A stretch of DNA of 32,959 nucleotides. Origin: a virus (lineage: Duplodnaviria; Caudoviricetes). The position numbers and the translations under genes were made by a program. The notes under the pieces were generated by a model that had not been told where the DNA came from, ran no database searches, and saw only the letters and a program-made list of their open reading frames with translations. The stretch lies in IMG/VR virus record IMGVR_UViG_3300020045_016384, positions 1 to 32,959 of that record; one strand, 5' to 3'. This document shows positions 3,525 to 27,193 of the stretch, in pieces; position 1 is the first letter of the stretch, and every line of letters starts with the position of its first letter.

Positions 3525-3878
3525 TTTATTGAAAGTTCTTTTCCAAATGTTACATGGTTTGCGCTCAAGTCTTAATTGTTTGAGCGCTTTTTCCACAATA
3601 ATGATCCCGCCCTTTTTATCTTGCTCACTTTGAAAAAATGAGTCTTCTAGTTCTAGTGCACACTCATCATGTGAGCCGTTTGTCTTGCTCAACTCAACAC
3701 AATAAATTTTACCGTTACTTAGGACTCTCGGCTTCAACCTGGTCTTGACGCTGTTCAACATCGCGTCCAAATCGCTCTCTTGCGATGCGTCTTTCTTTGG
3801 CGAGCTTACGCAAGCTGTCAGGACGAATGCCATCAGCCCAATTACGCACAACCGGATTGGTTTGATATTCTTTAGCAT
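3513..3878 (-). CDS. o-spanin (Rz1-like outer-membrane lipoprotein)
   Basis: Signal MLKNIKPIRLCVIGLMAFVLTA-C with lipobox LTAC; GGAG RBS; overlaps the 3' part of the i-spanin in another frame. Confidence 0.75.
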   Translation of the reverse strand: MLKNIKPIRLCVIGLMAFVLTACVSSPKKDASQESDLDAMLNSVKTRLKPRVLSNGKIYCVELSKTNGSHDECALELEDSFFQSEQDKKGGIIIVEKALKQLRLERKPCNIWKRTFNKLEC

Positions 3879-4122
3879 AACTTTCTCCATAAACATTTTT
3901 TGCACCAATGACACCTGTGTCGATAGCGTCAGCTTTCTTTTGCTCTTCGGCACCATCGGAAATAATGTTACTTGTAGCGTTTATTTTGGCTCCACGTTGT
4001 TCACCCACAGCGGCGTCCGCTTTCCATCCCGCAATCTTTAACCCAACAATGGTGAGTGTGACCGCCATTACCAAAACAATTACCAATGCAATTATCACTT
4101 TTACTTCTTTGAAAGCATCCAT
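3715..4122 (-). CDS. i-spanin (Rz-like)
   Basis: Single N-terminal TM helix, helical periplasmic part, GGGGAG RBS, and an overlapping lipoprotein gene. Confidence 0.75.
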   Translation of the reverse strand: MDAFKEVKVIIALVIVLVMAVTLTIVGLKIAGWKADAAVGEQRGAKINATSNIISDGAEEQKKADAIDTGVIGAKNVYGESYAKEYQTNPVVRNWADGIRPDSLRKLAKERRIARERFGRDVEQRQDQVEAESPK

Positions 4123-4123
4123 A

Positions 4124-6079
4124 TTAATCTCCCCAAGGAGTGAAGCCAGTCGGACTAGCATACGGCATTCTGTCGGAAGTAAATGCCATTTCGCAACCGA
4201 ATGTGTTTTCAGCAGACGTTACAACAGGGAACAAATCAAGAGCGCCAGTGTAAGTGCAAGACTCGCCGGTTCCTGCCACCGGATCACCTGACCAAACGTT
4301 ATTTTTTCCGACCCATACTTTTTTGGTATTCGCATTTAGCGCCAACATTATCCAATCTTCCGGGCCAGCTATGCCTGTAATAGAGCCAGGATCGGTACCA
4401 TCAGTAAATGAGCCACCAACATTCACCTGGCCTTGGAAAGCGCCACCGACACGCACTACCATCGCATTAGCGGCAGCTGCGTCGAATATGCCAATTGAAG
4501 TAGTATAAGTTCCACCTGTCAATTGAGCAAAATTCCTAACCGCAAACCAATAGAGTCCGCTTCCGCGTGATGTGTTACAAAAATTACCTCTAGTTACACC
4601 AGAAGTATTTATCATAGCAAGACTCAGACCATCATAACTGGTATTTAGTTTACTGATACCTGGATACGAATCGCTCATTCTACAAGCGGGGAGAGAATAT
4701 GAGGCATCTGAAATAATATCGCTTATCGTTTTACCATTTCCACCATCGTAACAATACGAAAGTTGATCTTGATTTATTACGCCTAGACCAAATGCCATAA
4801 AGGCGACATTGGCAGGTGAGCTTATCGCAGCGCCTACAGCGCCAATGCCGACACTTTGTGTCGGATTCAAATTAACGTTGCCAGTAGCGATGTCAACATC
4901 CATGACATCGTTTACGTGTTTTATAATTTCACCAGTTGCCAAATGTTGAGTAACTATCATTGTCCATTCCGCAACGGTGTCAGAACTTGTTGCAGCATAA
5001 ACAGTGCCACCATTTAATCCTCGTGCAACAAAGCCTGTTGAATTTTCACCGATAGAAATTGATTCATTACTACCATCTTGGTATAAAAAACAAATGACAG
5101 AAGGATCGACAAAAAACGAAGCTTGTCTAACCATAGCTATCATGAAAAAATCTTTACCATTTGCCCAATTAGGTAAGTTATATGCGGAACGAACATTACC
5201 TGTTGATATTGCTCTTCCAAAAGGCGGCGCGTCCACGTAAGCGGGTGTCAATCTTTCATCGGTTAATGGGTTCGGCCCCCAACCATCAACGGTAGAATCT
5301 TCTAAATCAAACCAGCTGCGTAATATCTCAAGCAGGCTTGATGCCACTAAGGTCAAATCGATTGGAGAAGGTGTAATAGTTGAAATATTGTCCTCAGACT
5401 CGGGATCGACTGATACGGAAGTGACAGTTGCAGTATTCTCATAGGAACCTGTCGATAGAACAGTTGCGACTATTTCCAAAGTAACACTTTCTGTATTTGC
5501 CAAAGTACCAATACCTGACCATTCGCCGGTAACGTCATCGTAAGTGCCAACGCTAGGTGTAGCAGAAACAAACGCATAACCATCCGCCAACAAATCGCTA
5601 ACAACAATACCTATAGCAGAATCGGGGCCGTTGTTAGTAACCGTGATAGTGAAAGTAATATTGGCACCAACAGCGGGCGCTAGTGTATCTGCCACTTTTA
5701 TAATTTGTAAATTAGATTCCAACACTGGCGGCGCTTCGACTTCCAAAGCACCGTAGCATTGTAAGAAGTCCATCGTAATTGTAAATTGCATGCCGCCAAC
5801 ATTTACAATCTTGTACGAACCTTCTAATGTGAATGTGCCAAGATCAGCGAGCGGCGGTTTCCACAAAAAAGGTGTAGCTTTATTTCTTCGCAAGAAGGAA
5901 ATAATACTAAGCATTTTAGTCGTGTCACCTGAAACAACAACAGTCCATTTGTTGATTTCAGAATTGATATCGACAACACCTTGCTGAGCGTATTGATCGG
6001 CAAACTGGATTTGAAGCGCAGTGAATTCCGGCCCACCTCCCGAGTCCGTATTGACGCGCCACGTAAATTCTTCAGTCAC
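4124..6079 (-). CDS. Decorated distal tail protein paralogue: gpM/Dit domain + DUF11 Ig-like + LamG/ConA-like + SPRY-like domains
   Basis: aa 1-110 align without gaps to the 28612..28968 product (51/110 identical by hand count). TFTITVTNNGPDSA...ENTATVTS is a DUF11 pattern. C-terminal GLYWFAV...MLALNANTKKVWVGKN...MPYASPTGF is SPRY-like. Confidence 0.8.
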   Translation of the reverse strand: MTEEFTWRVNTDSGGGPEFTALQIQFADQYAQQGVVDINSEINKWTVVVSGDTTKMLSIISFLRRNKATPFLWKPPLADLGTFTLEGSYKIVNVGGMQFTITMDFLQCYGALEVEAPPVLESNLQIIKVADTLAPAVGANITFTITVTNNGPDSAIGIVVSDLLADGYAFVSATPSVGTYDDVTGEWSGIGTLANTESVTLEIVATVLSTGSYENTATVTSVSVDPESEDNISTITPSPIDLTLVASSLLEILRSWFDLEDSTVDGWGPNPLTDERLTPAYVDAPPFGRAISTGNVRSAYNLPNWANGKDFFMIAMVRQASFFVDPSVICFLYQDGSNESISIGENSTGFVARGLNGGTVYAATSSDTVAEWTMIVTQHLATGEIIKHVNDVMDVDIATGNVNLNPTQSVGIGAVGAAISSPANVAFMAFGLGVINQDQLSYCYDGGNGKTISDIISDASYSLPACRMSDSYPGISKLNTSYDGLSLAMINTSGVTRGNFCNTSRGSGLYWFAVRNFAQLTGGTYTTSIGIFDAAAANAMVVRVGGAFQGQVNVGGSFTDGTDPGSITGIAGPEDWIMLALNANTKKVWVGKNNVWSGDPVAGTGESCTYTGALDLFPVVTSAENTFGCEMAFTSDRMPYASPTGFTPWGD

Positions 6080-6227
6080 TTTTCTGCACCGGATTGTTTA
6101 TCTTGAATTTCAAATTAAGCAGATCAAGATTGACGCATTTGCTACCGAGATTTTTTATCCCGGCATCGAAAATGACTTTCAACAATGAATGCTCAGCGTC
6201 AGTAAGCGGGGCTATTTCCTTACTCAT
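6072..6227 (-). CDS. Small protein (51 aa), possible fibre chaperone or accessory protein
   Basis: MSKEIAPLTDAEHSLLKVIFDAGIKNLGSKCVNLDLLNLKFKINNPVQKSD*; ATGA overlap with the fibre stop and GTGACTGA overlap with the next start. Confidence 0.65.
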   Translation of the reverse strand: MSKEIAPLTDAEHSLLKVIFDAGIKNLGSKCVNLDLLNLKFKINNPVQKSD

Positions 6228-7717
6228 ATCGGTGTCGCCGGTACAGTCCATCGATTGCCAACCGTATCTCTTAGCTCAATGGTAGTGCCAGTGGAATTTG
6301 TAGGTAAACAGGCATCTAACTGGGCCTTGTTCGGAACATCGGTAGGGTCAACCGCTGGCGCTGCACGCTCAATAATTCGCTGGGTGGTACCATCGCCCAC
6401 CGATACCCGATTAGCGCCTGTAGTGAGTGATCCTTTGCCCAGTGCAACAGAATTTACGTGAGCCGCGAAAGCTTGATAGCCTATGGCAGTAGCATTAGTT
6501 TGTTCTGCATGGGAAGCGGTACCGAAAGCATTTGCCCCTGAATGATCTGCCACAGAAGCGTAGCCGACTGCCATGGTATAGGTACTAGATGCATTTGCAT
6601 TTTTACCTATTGCTACAGATTGTCCCCCAGTACCTTGTGCCGAACGGCCAATGACAACTGAATTGGCCGCATTGCAATATGCTTGATGACCAATCGCAAC
6701 GACATCAGTTGAATAGGCTTTGGCGTAACTCCCCATCGCAACAGTATTATCATAATCTGCTTTTGCGAAAGCACCTGTAGCAGTGGCATTGCTACCCGCC
6801 GCTCTGGAAACAAAACCCACCGCAGTATTGTAGTTTTGCGTAGCTTGCGAATATGGCCCTAAAGCAGTTGACATAGTTCCTGTCGCGTGCGCTTCCCTAC
6901 CACCTGCAAAACTATTTGCACCCGATGCAATACTGTAATAACCCAATGCAGTAGAGAAATTCGCAGACGCCAAAGCTTGCACACCGAAAGCTGAAGATTG
7001 CGCGCCAGTAGCCTGTGAATCTTTACCACCAGCTATTGAATTTACACCAATGGCCTGTGCGTTTTTACCGAACGCAGAAGAACCTATACCTGCGGCTCGT
7101 GAGTACGCGCCGACAGAAACAGAATTTTGACTTTCCGCAGTGGCATACAAACCCAATGCTGTCGAATAGGTGCCAGTAGCAGAAGCGTAGGCACCCAATG
7201 CCGTTGAATATTTCCCACTAGCAATTGACGTTTTCCCGAGTGCAACATTTTCATCTATAGTGAAAGAGCCAACATCCCCGTTGCGACCTTGGAAATAATT
7301 TGACAAATCTCCACCGCCACCACCTGAACCTGGTGGGCCGACCAAGCTAACACCTGAGCCCCAATCACCGGCATTTTTCTGGAACAACGTAACGGCTACG
7401 CGATTAATATAAAAGTTGCCATTGACGCCAAGAGAGTTATCAGGATCAGTGTCACCAAACAACACGGTGTTACCATCAGCACCATCTTGTCCATCAGCAC
7501 CATCAGTTCCGTTTGTGCCGTCCGCACCAGCATCACCAGTGTCCCCTTTTTCACCTTGCGCTCCTTGCGGGCCGACAATCCCTGAAGACAGAATATTTAA
7601 AAATGCCGCCACTTCTTCTGGAAATTCTCCGATATCGTCCAAGTCATCGCCGGAACCAATCGTAATATCCAATAAGTACATGGGAGTTATTTTTGCACCA
7701 ACAAGAAAAAGGCTCAT
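6224..7717 (-). CDS. Tail fibre/adhesin with collagen-like repeat and YadA-type (Hep_Hag) head repeats plus neck motif
   Basis: About 11 G-X-Y triplets, about 20 14-residue repeats of the STALG type, and a neck motif VSVG...RII...DPTDVPNKAQL. No signal peptide and no beta-barrel anchor. Confidence 0.85.
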   Translation of the reverse strand: MSLFLVGAKITPMYLLDITIGSGDDLDDIGEFPEEVAAFLNILSSGIVGPQGAQGEKGDTGDAGADGTNGTDGADGQDGADGNTVLFGDTDPDNSLGVNGNFYINRVAVTLFQKNAGDWGSGVSLVGPPGSGGGGGDLSNYFQGRNGDVGSFTIDENVALGKTSIASGKYSTALGAYASATGTYSTALGLYATAESQNSVSVGAYSRAAGIGSSAFGKNAQAIGVNSIAGGKDSQATGAQSSAFGVQALASANFSTALGYYSIASGANSFAGGREAHATGTMSTALGPYSQATQNYNTAVGFVSRAAGSNATATGAFAKADYDNTVAMGSYAKAYSTDVVAIGHQAYCNAANSVVIGRSAQGTGGQSVAIGKNANASSTYTMAVGYASVADHSGANAFGTASHAEQTNATAIGYQAFAAHVNSVALGKGSLTTGANRVSVGDGTTQRIIERAAPAVDPTDVPNKAQLDACLPTNSTGTTIELRDTVGNRWTVPATPI

Positions 7718-8046
7718 GGCGGCGTCACCGATTTTTCAAGGAAGTAAGTGTAGGTTTTGGAAAAACCTGGCAAGCCGCCTGGGGGAGAGAATCTGATATC
7801 GATTGCAATCTTTTGGCTTGTCAAAATTGCAGTGGTATCAAGCGTATAAAAATACGTGTCATCAGGTGATGTTTTTTTTACAAAGTTACCGACAATAGCG
7901 CCATTAACATCTTCATCGCGAACACTCGATGAAATTTCCCAATCCGTAATATCGGTCAAGTATTCATGTAAACCAGTAAGTTCGTTGAACTTCTTGATTT
8001 TCCCGTAGAGAACAATTTGCTCTCCGATTTTGATTGGACGACTCAT
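7714..8046 (-). CDS. Putative fibre adaptor/attachment protein
   Basis: Beta-rich 110 aa (DITDWEISSSVRD...DIRFS...SKT...VT), coupled directly upstream of the fibre gene. Function is inferred from context. Confidence 0.55.
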   Translation of the reverse strand: MSRPIKIGEQIVLYGKIKKFNELTGLHEYLTDITDWEISSSVRDEDVNGAIVGNFVKKTSPDDTYFYTLDTTAILTSQKIAIDIRFSPPGGLPGFSKTYTYFLEKSVTPP

Positions 8047-8369
8047 GGGTTTTTATTCCTACGTTCTGTTCCAACCCAAGGGGTACCGTCTGCATTTTTA
8101 CCACTAATCCACTGCCACCAAGGCGGTAGATATGGTGTGGTCACAAAAACTAGCGTCAGGCCAAATCTAAAAACGACTTCGTAAATGTTTGGTGAAGTAC
8201 CATGCCATAAATCATAACCGATAATACCTATCGATCCTGCGCCGACAAGTATGAAACCGATTAAACGAAAATTCCAATGCCAGCCTTTTTGCCATCGCAA
8301 ATCATGCGCGCGTGCCAACATAGTTGCTGCAATTATCAGCAAGCAAATAATATTTAATATATAAAGCAT
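8043..8369 (-). CDS. Membrane protein, holin/antiholin candidate
   Basis: Three hydrophobic helices; GGAG RBS; lies in the lysis cluster. Confidence 0.65.
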   Translation of the reverse strand: MLYILNIICLLIIAATMLARAHDLRWQKGWHWNFRLIGFILVGAGSIGIIGYDLWHGTSPNIYEVVFRFGLTLVFVTTPYLPPWWQWISGKNADGTPWVGTERRNKNP

Positions 8370-8771: not shown

Positions 8772-9425
8772 CTATATCCCCATTAATGTCTTGATTCGTA
8801 ACAACGCTTTCTTGCGGTCAGAATAACCATTGGGTGTGCCGCCTGCGCTGGCGCTGCCAAGATTAACAGCCTTGGAAACGGATAGCAAATCGTCCTTCAG
8901 GGCGTATTTACCAATATCTCCCGAACGCCAATACCAGATTGCAGACAGTAATGCGTCAGGCATGGTGCGCAAAGCAGCAGGGTTTTTCAAAATGCGCAGA
9001 TCGTTATATACAGCCATGCTATATCTTTTCGCATTATCACGGCCAGTTAAATGAAAAACACCAACACCTGCGAAATCATAACCATCATTAATTTCAGTGT
9101 TGCCGAGATTTTTAAATCCCCATTCGCCACCATAAACACAATTGCCAATTGCTTTTACATTGGCCGGTTGCGATGCGCTGCGCCCGTATCTTTTCGCGTC
9201 CTCTTCACTAATCCGATGACGTGCAAAAGTTTTCAGCAAACCTTCAACCGAGTAGTTCAAATTTTCTGCAAACTTTGTGAAGCCTAAAGTTTCCACAGAA
9301 GCTTGTGCAAGAAAGTGAGCTATTTCTAATTTGTTTGTAAATTTTTGCTCACCCATGATGGTTTGAAATTTAATAGCAAAATTTGCTTCGCCCCCTAATT
9401 TAACAATAACGTCTTTAATTTCCAT
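8772..9425 (-). CDS. Endolysin, glycoside hydrolase family 19 (chitinase-like)
   Basis: AHFLAQASVET, ENLNYS, NLGN...DG..F.G.G...LTGRDN, SAIWYW and NGYSDR motifs. Confidence 0.9.
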   Translation of the reverse strand: MEIKDVIVKLGGEANFAIKFQTIMGEQKFTNKLEIAHFLAQASVETLGFTKFAENLNYSVEGLLKTFARHRISEEDAKRYGRSASQPANVKAIGNCVYGGEWGFKNLGNTEINDGYDFAGVGVFHLTGRDNAKRYSMAVYNDLRILKNPAALRTMPDALLSAIWYWRSGDIGKYALKDDLLSVSKAVNLGSASAGGTPNGYSDRKKALLRIKTLMGI

Positions 9426-12262: not shown

Positions 12263-12606
12263 CCCATGAAGGTAGTCATGTCAAGCGCGCCCAGACCTGG
12301 AGCTATAAAGTGCTTGCCGTCCCAATGCAAGGTCAGAATGTCCGGCTCAATAGGCTGGAATCGACACTGGTACGATCCTGGCTCAATGGGTCTTGTGTGC
12401 CATAGGTGCCAAGGAGATATGCGCGTGTGGGGCCATTCAATCGGCTTGGTATCTGGGCCGATTTTCTCGAATACCCCATTGAGAAAAGCATGCACGGAAC
12501 CACACTTGTAGCAGCGATCCGGCGTGGGCCGTGACCAGGTAGCTTTCAGGTATTCCGAAAAAATAATGGTGGTACCGCAACGTGTGCATTCATAACTGTT
12601 TTTCAC
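12241..12606 (-). CDS. Zn-ribbon-containing hypothetical protein
   Basis: CTRC...CYKC pairs. Confidence 0.7.
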   Translation of the reverse strand: MKNSYECTRCGTTIIFSEYLKATWSRPTPDRCYKCGSVHAFLNGVFEKIGPDTKPIEWPHTRISPWHLWHTRPIEPGSYQCRFQPIEPDILTLHWDGKHFIAPGLGALDMTTFMGWRGAWE

Positions 12607-13111
12607 AGTTCCACCTTTTCGTCAGTGTCATTGCCAAGCCTGCCGAGACTGCCCCGCCAACGTGTGTCCAATGGGAAACGTCAGGCAGCAAGCCTAGCAC
12701 TTGCAAAATGATTTCGGCAAGTACAAGCAATATCAATAGCACATCAGCACGAATTGGAATATAGAACAGTCGAATTTTGCGCGTAGGAAATAAAACCGCA
12801 TAGCCCGTCATTAGTCCAAACACGACACCGGATGCCCCAATTGCACTAACACCTGGCTGTAATAGTTGTTGAAATGCACCGGCACCGATTGCCATCAGCA
12901 AATAGTATTCGATAAATTTTCTTCGTCCCCAATGTCGTTCAAGCACCATGCCCCAAAAAAATATTCCGATCATATTCACAAGAAGGTGCCAGATATTTAG
13001 GTGAATGAAACTGTATGTAAAAATGTTGATCGGAAACCATCCAATCGGTGGAATGCTCATTATGACGTTTAGTAAAATAATGTACGGCACAAAACTAAAC
13101 TTGTATTTCAT
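12590..13111 (-). CDS. Rhomboid-family intramembrane serine protease (173 aa)
   Basis: FIHLNIWHLLVNM (HxxxxHxxxN), G..LER.WG, catalytic GASG and SHWTHVGG; about 6 TM helices; AAGGA RBS before ATG 13111. Confidence 0.9.
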   Translation of the reverse strand: MKYKFSFVPYIILLNVIMSIPPIGWFPINIFTYSFIHLNIWHLLVNMIGIFFWGMVLERHWGRRKFIEYYLLMAIGAGAFQQLLQPGVSAIGASGVVFGLMTGYAVLFPTRKIRLFYIPIRADVLLILLVLAEIILQVLGLLPDVSHWTHVGGAVSAGLAMTLTKRWNCEKQL

Positions 13112-13412
13112 TTTTAATCCTTTGCAAGCAAGCCAGCAACCAGTCCAATTGTTCAATGGGGAACGCTGCGGCATCGCCATGAGAGAAAATAACAATAGCG
13201 TCTTCGACATTAGCATCAAGCGATACCATGTATTCAAAACCACTGCCATCCGAATAAAGATGTCCGAAACTAAGCTTATCAGCACTGAGAAATGTTTGAT
13301 TCGAGTAGGCGCTGGCCCCGACTTGAGCCGGCGAGCAATTATCACAAAGTTGATTGCCCTGCCAATTTAGCCCGTCTATTTTTATCGAACATTTTCCACA
13401 TTGCATTGCCAT
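13095..13412 (-). CDS. Hypothetical protein with N-terminal Zn finger
   Basis: CGKC...CDNC; start at 13412, just after the previous stop. Confidence 0.65.
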   Translation of the reverse strand: MAMQCGKCSIKIDGLNWQGNQLCDNCSPAQVGASAYSNQTFLSADKLSFGHLYSDGSGFEYMVSLDANVEDAIVIFSHGDAAAFPIEQLDWLLACLQRIKNEIQV

Positions 13413-21213: not shown

Positions 21214-23106
21214 ATGGAAGCCGAAGTCGATACCGAGTGTTACAGAAATTTTTGGTTATTTCGTGCGCTCGATCAGCACGGCAAGTTTCACACTTTCCCA
21301 ATGACGAATGAAATGCCTCTGGATCGACAAGGCGTTGCTGATTTTCTCTATCAGCACAAAATTTATACGTTCAACGGCATCAACTACGATATGCCGATGA
21401 TTACGCTGGCTTTGAATGGTGCGACATGTGCGCAACTCAAAGAAGCAAACGATGCAATAATCACAAAAGGTTTGAAGCCTTGGGATTTTTATAACTACTA
21501 CAATATCCAGCCGCTTGATTATTTGAATCATGTTGACTTGATCGAAGTGGCACCCGGCGTGCGAATCAGTTTGAAACTATACGCCGGTCGCAATCATTCC
21601 TTAAAGATGCAAGACTTACCTTATCCGCACGATAAGGAATTGTCGCCTTGGGAAATGTTTAACACGACTGACTACTGCGGTAACGATCTTTGGAACACGA
21701 AAGATTTACGGGTAGCATTGGCAGGCGAGATAGCTCTTCGTGACGCATTGACCTACAAATACCAAGTCGATCTGCGAAGTAAATCAGATGCGCAGATTGC
21801 CGAAGCCATTATTAAAACCAAACTGACGTTCAAGCCGCAACGCCGATACATTCCGCATGGCTACAATTTTTACTGCGATATTCCCCCACACATCAAATTC
21901 GCCACACCTGAATTACAGGAAGTGCTTTCGATTGTTCGCAACGCATCGTTTGTGGTGGAAGACAAAGAGCAAGCTATCGAACTTGGCATTCTCGAAGGTG
22001 TGCGTACTGGTGTAAAGATTCCCGATGAACTTAAAAAGATGGTCATCAAAATAGGCAACGGAAAATATAAATTCGGTATTGGTGGATTACATTCACAAGA
22101 ACAAACTGTTTCTTACTACACGAACGATTATGTCGAATATGAAGACATCGATGTCGATAGTTTTTACCCAACCAGCATTTTGAATGCGAACATGTACCCC
22201 GAACAAATTGGCCCAGGTTTCATTCCGATCTACCGTGAGATTTATGATCGCCGATTGTTTTGTAAATCGGAAGCTAAACGTCTTGAAAAGATCGCCGCTT
22301 ATTTAGACGGTCAAGATAAGAACGATACGATTCATCAGCAAGCGCAAATGACCGTAGAGAACGAAGGATTAAAGATTGTGCTTAACGGCACCTTTGGAAA
22401 ATTGTTCTCCATGTGGAGCGTTGTTTACGCACCTGAACTTGGCATCAAGGTCACTATCGGAAATCAATTGTCATTGCTCATGCTAATTGAAATGTTGGAA
22501 CTTAGCGGCATTCGTGTCGTGTCTGCAAACACCGATGGCCTGGTGGTCGAAATAAAAAAAGGCATGCGCAAAATATTTGAAGACGTTGTTAGATGGTGGG
22601 AACAAGTTGGCGGATTCACCATGTCGTCTAAAAAATATAGATCGATCCATTTTCGCGATGTCAACAATTACGTTGCAATCGACAGCGATGGTAAGGCAAA
22701 ACGCAAAGGTGTTTTCGGCCAAGGCGGAATTACTAAAAAGAAACATCCGGAAAAAGAAATCTGTTCCGATGCAGTGGTTGAATATTTACTCAATGGCACA
22801 TCGATTCGCGAAACGATTAAAAAATGCAATGACATTCGCAAATTCGTTGTGATCCGGCAAGCCAAAGGTGGCGCATGCTATTCCAAAACCGGAGAGTACC
22901 TTGGCAAAGCAATTCGCTGGTACTACGGCATGGAGCCTTGGTTCATCGCAACGGTTGGTAGCGGTAATCGTGTTGCCGGATCGGAGTATGCAGTACCGTG
23001 CATGCAGCTTCCGCCCATCATGCCGACCGATGTGAATCACGAATATTACATTCGTGAAGCAATGGAAATGTTGAAGGACATAGGAGTAGTTTATGGCCGC
23101 GATTAA
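21214..23106 (+). CDS. DNA polymerase, family B-type, with 3'-5' exonuclease
   Basis: Exo motifs DTECY, FNGINYD and YCGND; polymerase motifs DVDSFYP, KIVLNGTFGK and NTDG. Confidence 0.92.
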   Translation: MEAEVDTECYRNFWLFRALDQHGKFHTFPMTNEMPLDRQGVADFLYQHKIYTFNGINYDMPMITLALNGATCAQLKEANDAIITKGLKPWDFYNYYNIQPLDYLNHVDLIEVAPGVRISLKLYAGRNHSLKMQDLPYPHDKELSPWEMFNTTDYCGNDLWNTKDLRVALAGEIALRDALTYKYQVDLRSKSDAQIAEAIIKTKLTFKPQRRYIPHGYNFYCDIPPHIKFATPELQEVLSIVRNASFVVEDKEQAIELGILEGVRTGVKIPDELKKMVIKIGNGKYKFGIGGLHSQEQTVSYYTNDYVEYEDIDVDSFYPTSILNANMYPEQIGPGFIPIYREIYDRRLFCKSEAKRLEKIAAYLDGQDKNDTIHQQAQMTVENEGLKIVLNGTFGKLFSMWSVVYAPELGIKVTIGNQLSLLMLIEMLELSGIRVVSANTDGLVVEIKKGMRKIFEDVVRWWEQVGGFTMSSKKYRSIHFRDVNNYVAIDSDGKAKRKGVFGQGGITKKKHPEKEICSDAVVEYLLNGTSIRETIKKCNDIRKFVVIRQAKGGACYSKTGEYLGKAIRWYYGMEPWFIATVGSGNRVAGSEYAVPCMQLPPIMPTDVNHEYYIREAMEMLKDIGVVYGRD

Positions 23107-23401
23107 AAAACTGGAACTCGATTTAATGTCTCTTGAAATTCACATGAATGCGTTCAAGGATTTATTGCTGGAGCGTTACCCTTCGGACATTGCGATGGAA
23201 GAGCATTCGCTGAAAGCCATTAATCTATTGACACTTCATACCTTCAATAATACCCGGCATGCCCCTAAATTGCCGGATCGATTAGAAGTCGATGTCAACT
23301 TAGCTGCGGCATTGATGCATGTTCTTCTTATCGCTGCCAAAGGCAAGATACCTGTTGGCAGCATAGTAAGAGAAATGATCGAGTACGATCTGAAGCATTA
23401 A
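23093..23401 (+). CDS. Hypothetical protein
   Basis: AGGAG RBS; overlaps the end of the polymerase gene. Confidence 0.7.
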   Translation: MAAIKKLELDLMSLEIHMNAFKDLLLERYPSDIAMEEHSLKAINLLTLHTFNNTRHAPKLPDRLEVDVNLAAALMHVLLIAAKGKIPVGSIVREMIEYDLKH

Positions 23402-26400
23402 GGTTCTTCGCCTGGGAACTCACCATCACGAATAATCTCAAGAATAATATTTACATCGAGATTTCTTGTAGCGCCTAAAGAATCTGTGGCAACAACATTG
23501 TAAATATATTCTGGTGCAAAACGTGTGCCAGTTCTACTGAAAGTTGCAGTGGCAGTGCTCAAACCTGTTGCCGTATGTGCCAGTGTGCCACTTACCAAAG
23601 TCCACGCGTAAGTCCAAGGCCCAGTGCCGAAAGATGCGACAGCAGTGCTTGATCCTGAAACTGTTATTGGCGCGTAGGCGGTTGTGTGATCGACCGCATA
23701 AACATCATTCGCCGTCAAATCAGAACCAGTGATAAAACGTTGCAGTGTGACATCGCGTGTAGCAGATGCCAGTAGCCCGTCACCGTCAACACCTGTTACT
23801 TTCCATGTCTGCGTCACGTTGTAAGCAGATACACCATCAGGGATGCTTAGATCGAGTGTGCTACTTGTCAAACCAGCATCATCGAATGACGTGCCGCTAG
23901 TGCCGACACGTTCCCACACGAAGTCCACAAAAGATGTGTAACCTGTTGCATTGGCCGTCAAAGTGATTGATGGGTGAGAAGGTGTTGCACCATCAGTGTC
24001 GGAACTAGCAGATGCAGGATCAGGGGTAATCGTGATGGAGAATGGGGACGACAAAGTGAAATTGTAAAACCATTGCACACCTGTGTTATTGGTAGTCAAC
24101 CTTACAACGTCTGTTCGTCCCGCGCCATCGGATACAACATAAGGTACACCATCGACCGGAACGCAGCTTGAAGGAAATCCAAAAGTAAATGAACCAGTGT
24201 TTGTGATTTCAATTGAAATTTCATCTTGCGGTGCAACGTTAATAAACACTACTTGCGCAGGATCGATATTTTCAACAAGCAATAATCTAAATTGTGTGAA
24301 ACGGCAATCGATTACAAGTAGGCCACTATCGTTCAACGCAAGATCGATAGTTGGAAAAACTGCATCGCTTATGAACATCGCATCCGACACAACGCTTGGG
24401 CCTGTAAGCCCTTGGCTGTTGGTCGCCCATACGCGAACACGATAAGTGCCAGTGAACGCATTATCCCATTCATCATTGCTGCTATCGCGATGGTATATCT
24501 GACTCCAATTACCATTATCTTTTTGCCATTGCACGCCATAGCCTGTAGCGCCTGGTACGTTCTCCCAGTCTGCAAATAAAACATTCGCAGCAACACCATG
24601 ACCATAGCGAATATTGTTTACTACAGTGAGCCCAGTTGGCCTTGCCAGCACAGGGCGATTGGATATTGGTAAATCAGGTATTGGCGTACCGTCTTCGATA
24701 AGATCGAATTTGTAAGGGTTATGTTTTAATGCTGCCACTTCGTAACCTGGGCCTTCAGAACTTTCAGTGACAGCCAGCACGCGGAATGTCTGCGCATACA
24801 ATTCGCTAGATTCAATAAGCCATATCGCATTTTTTTCCGGCAAGCCAGATAATGCTGTTGACAAAACCACATGGTTTGTCGTGATGCTATCGACAGTCGC
24901 AGACGACAAAGTGCCATCGGCCATCATTACCGACACTGTATCGCCTGGTGCGCCAATGACTGTCGAATCTGCATAAAACTCCGTAGTGCTGATTGGATTG
25001 GATACGCGACCGCCCATGCGCTTACCTGCGCGCAGTCGATCAGCTATTTTTATGATCTTACCTGGCGCGGCCAATGCACCATCCATGCCGACATCAAAAC
25101 TGGCAACTTCAGTTTCCAATCGCTCAGAAATTAAAATGTATTTTCCTTGGCGGCGAGCTTGGCCGCGTGATGTGCAACCAAGAGCAATCACTTGTGTTTC
25201 TTGAATACCGTATTTAGCAATACCTTCTGGGTCTTCAATATATTCGACGCGTGTGCGGCCAAAATTGGACATGTCATTCCATGACACCAATGCCACAGTA
25301 TGTCGAACTTTTTTAGAGCTACCGGAATATTTGAACTTGCCATTTTTTACATTGGCGTTCGTATAAAGTAAAGTTGGGTCTTCAGGCATATCGGCAACAG
25401 CAGTTATATTGCCGGATGCGACATAACTAATGCCGCGAAACATCGTAGCCATGTCCTGCATGAAACGATAAGCGTCTTGGCGAACCTGATAATAAACATT
25501 AGCAGTAAATCGCGGCTCAACACCGCCCAAACCATCATCGATAAATTCATCACAATAGACGCCGATGCTATAAAGTTTCCATTTGTTTATTTGTTCGATA
25601 GGTAATATGTGACCAAGGCCGTAGCGATCATTAATTGCCATATCGTAGTAAACCCATGCAGGATTATTGGAATATGCAATTTGAAAAGTTCCGTCCCAGA
25701 TACCATCATACAGACGAGTTTCAGGATCGTAGTTCGATGGTACTTTAATCAATCTTCCCTTCATGTGGAAAGCGCGCGAAGGTATGCTTGGAAATTGTTT
25801 AGCGTCAACAATTGTTGAAACCAAAGCACTCATGGGCATGCGCAATTTAGCATCGACAATTTCAGTTATCGATTCTACTGCGGTGGTACCTTGCTCGGTT
25901 GAAGAAGTTGTATTTGGAGTTGTTCGACTGACGCGCACTGTCCAACCATCTGCGCTTGGTGGTAAATCGATACGATGCGAACGTTCGTACTTGGTGGTAG
26001 TTTTGCCAGTGAATGAATTTTCAAGCTTGGTCACGAAAGCGCCAACCCCAGTTTGCAATTCAATTTTATAGCCAACGCTATTACCATTGATATCACCGTT
26101 TGTTGGATCGGCTTTGGTCAATGCCAAAACTGCAATCCTTACTCTTATCGCAGTTACCGCAATGTTGCTAATGACTTGAGTGTACGCAGCTTCTGTACGT
26201 AACTCGAAGCCAACGGCAATTTCGTTTTCAACACCTTCAAATCCATTTATGTAATCTTGATCTTGGGTACCAACACGACTATCGATTTGAAAGTTAGTAA
26301 AGTTCTGCGTGCCATCGGCATTCTCAACTGGAACTTCGCTAAGATATATACAGCGCATTGGATGATCGCGATCTGCGAAACCATAAATCTCACCTTCGCT

Positions 26401-26517
26401 AACAAGGTCAAGTATTTTTGCGTAGGCGATACTATGCAGGCTATCCGGGGCTTCGATAGGAGTGCGTTGTTCCCCGCCAGCTGCTTTACCGCCACCACTG
26501 CCACGAACATCTTTCAT
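23398..26517 (-). CDS. J: Tail tip / central fibre protein (lambda gpJ-like host-specificity protein)
   Basis: GSGGGK...EAPDSL.S, DLVSEGEI.G, YSNNPAW, EPRF and GCTSRGQARR.G; FN3 domain; start at 26517 after the gpI stop. Confidence 0.92.
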   Translation of the reverse strand: MKDVRGSGGGKAAGGEQRTPIEAPDSLHSIAYAKILDLVSEGEIYGFADRDHPMRCIYLSEVPVENADGTQNFTNFQIDSRVGTQDQDYINGFEGVENEIAVGFELRTEAAYTQVISNIAVTAIRVRIAVLALTKADPTNGDINGNSVGYKIELQTGVGAFVTKLENSFTGKTTTKYERSHRIDLPPSADGWTVRVSRTTPNTTSSTEQGTTAVESITEIVDAKLRMPMSALVSTIVDAKQFPSIPSRAFHMKGRLIKVPSNYDPETRLYDGIWDGTFQIAYSNNPAWVYYDMAINDRYGLGHILPIEQINKWKLYSIGVYCDEFIDDGLGGVEPRFTANVYYQVRQDAYRFMQDMATMFRGISYVASGNITAVADMPEDPTLLYTNANVKNGKFKYSGSSKKVRHTVALVSWNDMSNFGRTRVEYIEDPEGIAKYGIQETQVIALGCTSRGQARRQGKYILISERLETEVASFDVGMDGALAAPGKIIKIADRLRAGKRMGGRVSNPISTTEFYADSTVIGAPGDTVSVMMADGTLSSATVDSITTNHVVLSTALSGLPEKNAIWLIESSELYAQTFRVLAVTESSEGPGYEVAALKHNPYKFDLIEDGTPIPDLPISNRPVLARPTGLTVVNNIRYGHGVAANVLFADWENVPGATGYGVQWQKDNGNWSQIYHRDSSNDEWDNAFTGTYRVRVWATNSQGLTGPSVVSDAMFISDAVFPTIDLALNDSGLLVIDCRFTQFRLLLVENIDPAQVVFINVAPQDEISIEITNTGSFTFGFPSSCVPVDGVPYVVSDGAGRTDVVRLTTNNTGVQWFYNFTLSSPFSITITPDPASASSDTDGATPSHPSITLTANATGYTSFVDFVWERVGTSGTSFDDAGLTSSTLDLSIPDGVSAYNVTQTWKVTGVDGDGLLASATRDVTLQRFITGSDLTANDVYAVDHTTAYAPITVSGSSTAVASFGTGPWTYAWTLVSGTLAHTATGLSTATATFSRTGTRFAPEYIYNVVATDSLGATRNLDVNIILEIIRDGEFPGEEP

Positions 26518-26518
26518 T

Positions 26519-27193
26519 TTATACGCTCTCGAATTGACCAATCCAACCAGGTAAACCATTACCGCCAGTGCCGCCGCTACCAACTGATCCGCTATTATCT
26601 GGAATGTATGCCTGATCGACTGCATTGATACCGGCAGAAATAACTGCACTGCCAATAAATAATTCACCGTAAAGCACTGGCACAGGATTCCCTTGAGCTT
26701 GCGTATTTACCGGCCCACTGAAAGTATAGCTAGGAGTATTTTCTGGCCGCTCACGCGCGTTCGGGCCTTTTGGCACAGGTGTCAATAATTGAATCACTCC
26801 ACCAACAACCAAGCCGATACCCATTTTGATTAACACTGGGCCAATCGGAAAGCCGAAGTAGGTAAGCACTGCGCCGATAACAATCAGAACGATGCCTGCG
26901 ATTACCTGGAAGACACCATTTTTTTTACTACCTTGCACAATGGGTGCGAAACGAATTGCCTTATCACCTGCGCAATTACGAAGTTCTTCTTGGTGAATAT
27001 TATTTTTGCCGTAGAAAACTGCATAGCTCAAACCATTTTCTTTGGAGTCCATAAGAAACTTTTCAAAGCCTGGAAATTGCGAACACATGGCAGAAACAGC
27101 TTCGGCAGCACTGCTAACTGCAAAGCGATGTATGCGGCCAAATTTTTTGCCGAGAACACCATACAGCTGAATTGTTTTAAGCTCGCTTTCCAT
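26519..27193 (-). CDS. I: Tail assembly protein (lambda gpI-like)
   Basis: LYGVLGKKFGR, PSYTFSGPVNT.AQGNPVPVLYGE and GSAVISAG. Confidence 0.92.
   Translation of the reverse strand: MESELKTIQLYGVLGKKFGRIHRFAVSSAAEAVSAMCSQFPGFEKFLMDSKENGLSYAVFYGKNNIHQEELRNCAGDKAIRFAPIVQGSKKNGVFQVIAGIVLIVIGAVLTYFGFPIGPVLIKMGIGLVVGGVIQLLTPVPKGPNARERPENTPSYTFSGPVNTQAQGNPVPVLYGELFIGSAVISAGINAVDQAYIPDNSGSVGSGGTGGNGLPGWIGQFESV

Follow-up and report, generated by a model that had tools for sequence, protein, structure and literature searches.

The Dit (distal-tail) ring, from which tail assembly starts, is generally regarded as one ring encoded by one gene. In phage lambda, the ring is made of gpM (PF05939; PDB 8IYK), the product of one 109-aa gene with no extension. 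Its E-loop is described as contacting the gpL/gpJ hub, and its beta-sandwich faces the tube (PMC10721106).

In phage T5, an extra tube-fold ring of p140 lies above the Dit, and a collar of p132 around p140 holds the fibers (PMC10038345). p140 is an undecorated, trimeric duplicate of the tube protein, and the authors of that work state that the collar requires a decoration-less ring. Lactococcal phage p2 is proposed to hold two Dit hexamers of the same protein, back to back, in one baseplate (PMC7472080); two p2 rings from one gene are also proposed in PMC6315561 and bioRxiv 10.64898/2026.05.20.726473.

The evolved Dits of lactic-acid-bacteria phages combine a ring domain with predicted carbohydrate-binding folds and act as accessory adhesins. 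Their modules are inserted in loops of the galectin domain (PMC7291167). The original prediction, which placed decorated Dits mainly in phages of Gram-positive hosts, overstated this, since T5 pb9, JBD30 gp49, and LSH1 gp24 (PMC13243795) are described as decorated Dits from phages of Gram-negative hosts. A 2026 paper sets out three known ways, and adds a fourth, of attaching side fibers at the level of the Dit; none involves two Dit genes (PMC13455828).

Metagenomes also contain extended gpM proteins. A C-terminal extension is present in P0269-P0271, where gpM is joined to two Ig domains, and in P0273 and P0275. P0272 (233 aa) and P0279 (1496 aa) have two PF05939 domains per chain, which suggests trimeric, pseudo-hexameric rings. 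Burkholderia phage vB_PR2b (PQ789827.1) has two gpM genes in one record; they belong to a tandem repeat of the tape-measure end, gpM, and fiber, and both copies are short and unfused. A piece of gpL lies between the repeats (L002, PQ789827.1:13346-18691).

The locus described here has a canonical gpM, gpM1, in the same H-M-L-K-I-J order as lambda, and a second copy, gpM2, in which the E-loop is altered and a tail of 540 aa is added. As in T5, a tube-fold protein that arose by duplication is encoded next to a side fiber and a putative collar protein of Ig type. Unlike p140, gpM2 derives from the Dit instead of the tube protein and is decorated, and its stacking is proposed. As in the evolved Dits, a ring domain is joined to predicted carbohydrate-binding folds, but gpM2 has no galectin domain; a C-terminal fusion adds one Ig-like, one LamG-like, and one SPRY-like domain in series, and a plain copy coexists with it. 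By the strict definition, gpM2 thus falls outside the evolved Dits, although its function would be similar. Two genes are present here, in contrast to the single Dit gene of p2. The long gpM fusions share the C-terminal position of the extension but differ from gpM2 in their domains, their intact E-loop glycines, and their separate origin in the tree.

The virus record and its two gpM genes

The window is the whole stretch analyzed, a virus contig of 32,959 bases. Replication genes and a lysis region are present, as is an operon for a tail tip of the lambda type (tape measure, M, L, K, I, J). Its near-complete relatives in IMG/VR (G004, G016, G020, and G072) are 44-47 kb long and have the same gene order as the window. 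Compared with them, about 12 kb is absent from the contig, head genes among it, and more fiber genes could sit there. Cultured phages are distant, with DNA polymerases at most 44% identical. The host is probably Gram-negative, because the tip is of the lambda type and spanin-like genes are present. A rhomboid-family protease gene (Pfam E 1e-26) is also found in G004, G016, and G072.

The canonical slot between tape measure and hub is held by gpM1 (Table 1). gpM2 is encoded in the lysis region, 22 kb from the tail-tip genes, and its base composition (GC 0.438, GC3 0.347) matches that of its neighbors.

Table 1. Coordinates of the gpM2 locus, the domains of its product, and other genes of the window referred to in the text.
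Feature	Position	Strand	Basis or remark
Rz-like gene, downstream flank of block	3715..4122	-	By position and N-terminal hydrophobic stretch
gpM2, second gpM/Dit paralog with three extra domains	4124..6079	-	651 aa; GTG 6079, stop 4124
SPRY-like domain, ~aa 460-651, predicted	4127..4702	-	ESM Atlas viral SPRY clusters, TM 0.73-0.79, score 0.96
LamG/ConA-like domain, aa 244-450, predicted	4730..5350	-	ESM Atlas TM 0.77-0.83, feature score 0.98
DUF11 Ig-like domain, aa 124-236, likely stalk	5372..5710	-	Pfam PF01345, E 1.6e-32
gpM/Dit tube-fold domain, aa 1-110	5750..6079	-	Core residues kept; E-loop Gly27, Gly29, Gly37 replaced
51-aa ORF, overlaps fiber stop and gpM2 start	6072..6227	-	Likely translational coupler or small fiber partner
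497-aa fiber, collagen repeat and YadA-head repeats	6224..7717	-	Pfam PF01391, PF05658; PHROG tail-fiber matches
110-aa beta-sandwich protein, likely p132/LtfC/BppU-N-like fiber collar	7714..8046	-	Predicted model
108-aa membrane protein, upstream flank of block	8043..8369	-	Holin-like by position
GH19-type endolysin gene	8772..9425	-	
Rhomboid-family protease gene	12590..13345	-	Pfam
102-aa ORF	23093..23401	+	
gpJ	23398..26667	-	
gpM1, canonical short gpM, 118 aa	28612..28968	-	Between tape measure and gpL

The ring domain of gpM2 is matched by PF05939 over aa 3-108 (58 bits; curated cut-off 39) and by solved chains 25vf_6 (E 2e-5), 9l9p_H, and 8iyk_M. The three domains named after it in the original prediction are borne out, DUF11 by Pfam and the other two by ESM Atlas models. 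Repeats in bacterial surface proteins share 40-50% identity with the DUF11 domain. The LamG-like and SPRY-like domains have no match in Pfam or PHROG; their ESM Atlas matches compare predicted models on both sides, and the SPRY clusters span aa 455-651. L001 encodes a 795-aa viral protein that is 32% identical to the SPRY part and has matches to virion-structural and tail-fiber families in PHROG. Judged from fold alone, the arms of gpM2 may bind glycans.

Origin of the ring domain and change in the E-loop

gpM1 and gpM2 are 46% identical without gaps over codons 2-110 (50/109), the value first reported for them, and BLASTP aligns them with 54/119 identities (E 9e-34). None of 91 other rows is as close to gpM2, the best reaching 37%; the best cultured-phage match of gpM1 reaches 39%. 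In a tree of 21 rows, hand-chosen from 86, the two domains are sisters (support 98/95) inside the clade formed by the single gpMs of the four relatives, and a quick tree of all 86 rows agrees (SH-aLRT 95). Over codons 2-110, pS is 0.733, with synonymous sites saturated, and pN is 0.345. These values fit an old duplicate within the lineage that has been under purifying selection.

The core of the ring domain is intact. All 11 columns that are invariant in a 10-sequence alignment, gpM2 itself included, are present in gpM2, which also keeps its aromatic core along with the FxWxPP motif. The E-loop lacks three conserved glycines.

Gly27, Gly29, and Gly37 are present in 77/79, 76/79, and 78/79 homologs, a conservation inflated by the many homologs that were found with an FGDGY-type pattern. 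All three are kept in gpM1 and replaced in gpM2, and none of 80 homologs lacks all three. Gly68 also differs between gpM1 and gpM2, depending on the alignment. By profile, gpM2 belongs to PF05939; in gene position and in the E-loop glycines conserved among gpM-type proteins (FGDGY, GxN), it departs from the family. Alignment with lambda gpM places Gly27, Gly29, and Gly37 in a long hairpin, which is taken to be the E-loop. Its profile score is 1.43 in gpM2, 2.04 in gpM1, and 2.17-2.62 in the four relatives; gpM2 regions outside the E-loop score within or close to the range of the relatives. The E-loop of gpM1 also scores below all 80 homologs, so the drift is partly lineage-wide. The net charge of the gpM2 E-loop, -2, is low and within the homolog range (3/80 at or below).

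These changes could mean that the gpM domain serves as a docking module away from the tube channel, on a collar, a fiber, or the side of the tip, or that gpM2 is a loosely attached adhesin. The four conserved glycines that differ from gpM1 (27, 29, 37, and the alignment-dependent 68) and the position of the gene with a fiber block, distant from the tail-tip genes, agree with such a role. The retained aromatic core and FxWxPP motif argue against it, and no precedent was found in the literature for a gpM domain outside a ring. This role is quite unlikely.

The original prediction also allowed for two virion types, in which either gpM2 or gpM1 would form the sole Dit ring and the particles would differ in host range. 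The ring core is kept in both domains, and some phages are described as carrying a pair of receptor-binding proteins on a single baseplate (PMC6315561). The window has a single tape measure, gpL, gpK, gpI, and gpJ, no switch is seen, and the part of gpM2 that has changed is the hub-facing loop. Two virion types are accordingly very unlikely, and this part of the prediction is not supported.

A four-gene block inserted in the lysis cassette

gpM2 is the last gene of a block that also contains the 110-aa gene, the fiber gene, and the 51-aa ORF, with an overlap at every junction. Neither this cassette, nor its place in the lysis region, nor the E-loop changes figured in the original prediction. 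The end of the 51-aa ORF overlaps the GTG of gpM2 by 8 nt, and no Shine-Dalgarno-like run lies upstream of that GTG. The start without a clear ribosome-binding site had been described before and stands; translational coupling, also proposed, is plausible, with the previously unnamed 51-aa ORF as the partner. This ORF has no Pfam or PHROG match. The ribosome site of the Rz-like gene falls within the last codons of gpM2. Promoter and terminator scans of the sequence were not above shuffles (11 versus 14.1 and 4 versus 6.8).

The block occupies 3920 bases between the holin-like and spanin-like genes. In G004, G016, G020, and metagenome contig L251, two holin-like genes directly abut the spanin-like genes; G072 has a different lysis set. 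By this comparison, the block has been inserted into a lysis cassette that runs uninterrupted in the four related sequences named first. The window has a GH19-type endolysin gene; the lysis region of four relatives encodes an unrelated, amidase-looking protein of 166-177 aa, and the lysin has thus apparently been exchanged too.

The model of the 110-aa protein has a pLDDT of 60 and no PDB match at E <= 0.001. Its top four PDB rows are tail-tip chains of 137-140 aa from T5 and DT57C (E 0.005-0.016), which we take to be p132 from their length. BFVD rows for the model carry BppU N-terminal and LtfC/p132 names. The protein has no Pfam or PHROG family match of its own, and its identity to the protein from G016 that was included in the alignment is 25% (E 0.16); Pfam LtfC appears below the cut-off only, in small proteins of G016 and G072. 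On these grounds, the 110-aa protein is weakly identified as a likely p132/LtfC-like collar. In G016 and G072, a gene for a comparable small beta-sandwich protein sits next to a collagen-like gene at another place in the genome, without gpM2, which suggests that the pair is a movable fiber cassette. The small LtfC-like and collagen-like genes lie between terminase genes in G016 (492-1693, L038) and after the lysis genes in G072 (527-1381, L307).

gpM2 could also be a passenger, an evolved Dit from an unsampled sister phage, where it would be the sole Dit, that is dispensable or decaying here and not incorporated. The block is absent from the four related sequences that show the cassette, gpM2 is a singleton, and exchange with a close unsampled lineage would also give the sister position and the low pN. 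Against this, the frame is intact over 651 codons, the overlaps are tidy, the downstream ribosome site lies inside gpM2, and the GC and GC3 of the gene are like those of its neighbors. Furthermore, a sole Dit should retain the hub-facing glycines, as the long fusions P0269-P0271 do. A passenger is therefore unlikely.

Distribution among phages

The reading of gpM2 as a selected second gpM paralog is upheld, and two gpM genes per phage are rare. Searches of cultured phages gave 981 gpM places in 980 records, and the sole record seen with two places is a tandem repeat with two short gpM copies. The four relatives have one gpM each. Three partly overlapping sets of IMG/VR records were matched by gpM in 14/19, 50/50, and 2/35 cases, each record once, although matches are not copy numbers; the 50/50 set comes from 50 of 78 loci submitted and includes 20 records that are at least 90% complete. 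Two gpM copies within 10 kb were found in 0/80 GTDB loci, a flank shorter than the layout here. One locus (L082, G049:7219-7536) has a gpM match with one internal TAG.

Long gpM proteins are uncommon as well. Among 7997 candidates scored, 12 gpM proteins exceed 208 aa, including those with gpM and two Ig domains. A gpM-domain search of proteins of 358-1140 aa gave gpM2 alone among 135 candidates. The gpM2 protein is a singleton cluster from one contig. The same architecture is absent among the best 120 of 268 and the best 150 of 16,275 full-length matches, which are dominated by DUF11 repeats. IMG/VR scans with gpM2, gpM1, and gpL gave no close relative. The 110-aa protein, the 51-aa ORF, and the LamG and DUF11 parts of gpM2 have no match in any of 392 fetched loci; the SPRY part is matched by one. 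The gpM2 layout was found in no other genome among those examined, and a comparable pair of gpM-type genes did not come up for any phage in the literature searched, mainly open-access.

No locus was found to encode the long fusions P0269-P0271; four IMG/VR loci that resemble them were rejected because the extra domain sits in gpL, not gpM. Long inserts interrupt or extend gpL in L120 (1958-3640), L150, L151, and L161, giving decorated hub proteins, and the 560-aa gpL of L120 shares a domain with P0269.

The slot after gpJ differs from that of the relatives. It is filled by adhesin-like genes in G004, G020, and G072, and G016 has an extended gpJ of 1837 aa, of which a 1074-aa ORF is the end. 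Here the slot is empty, with gpJ head-on against the 102-aa ORF. The LamG and SPRY parts of gpM2 have no detectable similarity to the post-gpJ proteins of the relatives; a replacement of those genes by gpM2 is therefore an argument from position only.

Proposed assembly of gpM2 at the tail tip

gpM2 is probably present in the virion in some ring form. The original prediction proposed a mixed or a stacked ring, and such a ring is still the best reading, resting on inference and one weak complex score.

In a mixed ring, gpM2 would replace some gpM1 subunits in a single Dit hexamer, for example in an alternating 3 + 3 arrangement, and display one to three arms. A predicted complex of three gpM1 and three gpM2 domains scores 0.43, versus 0.00 for the best control, and lends weak support (the runs agree in 90% or more of the contacts, and the partner pLDDT is 74 or higher). 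The mark for this score is reached by 116/157 solved complexes and 2/215 mismatched pairs; only 18 of the 157 solved complexes, and both mismatches, reach it with a score of 0.60 or less. The lambda gpM ring is reported to be 3-fold, with the E-loop in two conformers (PMC10721106), and the Dit of JBD30 alternates two different tube domains per ring (PMC11445458). The weak, coupled start of gpM2 would fit a minority subunit. The score may, however, reflect likeness to solved gpM hexamers, and close cousins of true partners passed in 10/12 calibration pairs. The same 79 homolog rows were used for both chains, so mixed and separate rings are indistinguishable by it, and it indicates only that gpM2 still resembles a ring subunit. 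The E-loop of gpM2 would also still face the hub in a mixed ring, though three of its glycines are lost. A mixed ring is doubtful, though it ranks not far below the stacked ring.

The favored reading, with a probability of roughly 0.4, is that gpM2 forms an extra, adhesin-bearing ring between the tail tube and the normal Dit, as p140 does in T5. It is preferred because the hub-facing loop is what has changed and because the gene sits with collar-like and fiber genes, as does that of p140. The short gpM1 would retain the gpL/gpJ hub contact and initiate tail assembly. gpM2 would then join gpM1 on its tube-facing side, with the altered E-loop packing on gpM1 instead of the hub, and the tube protein would polymerize on gpM2. 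The C-terminal DUF11-LamG-SPRY arm would point outward and reversibly bind surface glycans, and the p132-like protein would form a collar around the tip that holds the collagen-YadA fiber. Together, the four genes would make up an accessory module for side adhesion, convergent with T5 p140-p132-pb1 but on a lambda-type tip.

Several points weigh against the stacked ring. p140 is undecorated and derives from the tube gene, whereas gpM2 has 540 extra residues. G016 and G072 have the collar-like gene without gpM2, so a collar does not need a second ring, and a lambda collar is described on the ordinary gpV-gpM junction (PMC12617516). Part of the E-loop drift is lineage-wide, with homolog conservation inflated by the FGDGY-type search. 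The collar identity is weak at the model quality given above, and gpM2 is a singleton from a single contig.

Whichever ring is formed, the odds are slightly better than even that this lambda-type tip is built from two Dit paralogs, a plain one for the ring that holds the hub and an arm-bearing one for a second ring or an alternating subunit. gpM2 would then be a plug-in adhesin platform with its own collar and fiber, encoded by a mobile side-adhesion cassette.

Significance

The gpM2 duplicate is real and unusual, and it most likely gives the tail tip a structural platform for adhesins. The candidate new structural system of the original prediction has to be narrowed, since gpM is found in other long fusions, and T5 (p140) and p2 (Dit-2) are described as having additional tube-fold rings. 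The weight of the finding is limited by its single genome and incomplete contig, and the decorated Dit, the extra ring, and the collar each have precedent. If the proposal is true, the Dit can duplicate and split into structural and adhesive roles. To keep a plain gpM gene together with a diverged, arm-bearing one would be a further route by which receptor-binding modules are added to a lambda-type tip, with the hub-binding ring unaltered, and would arrive at the T5 layout by convergence.
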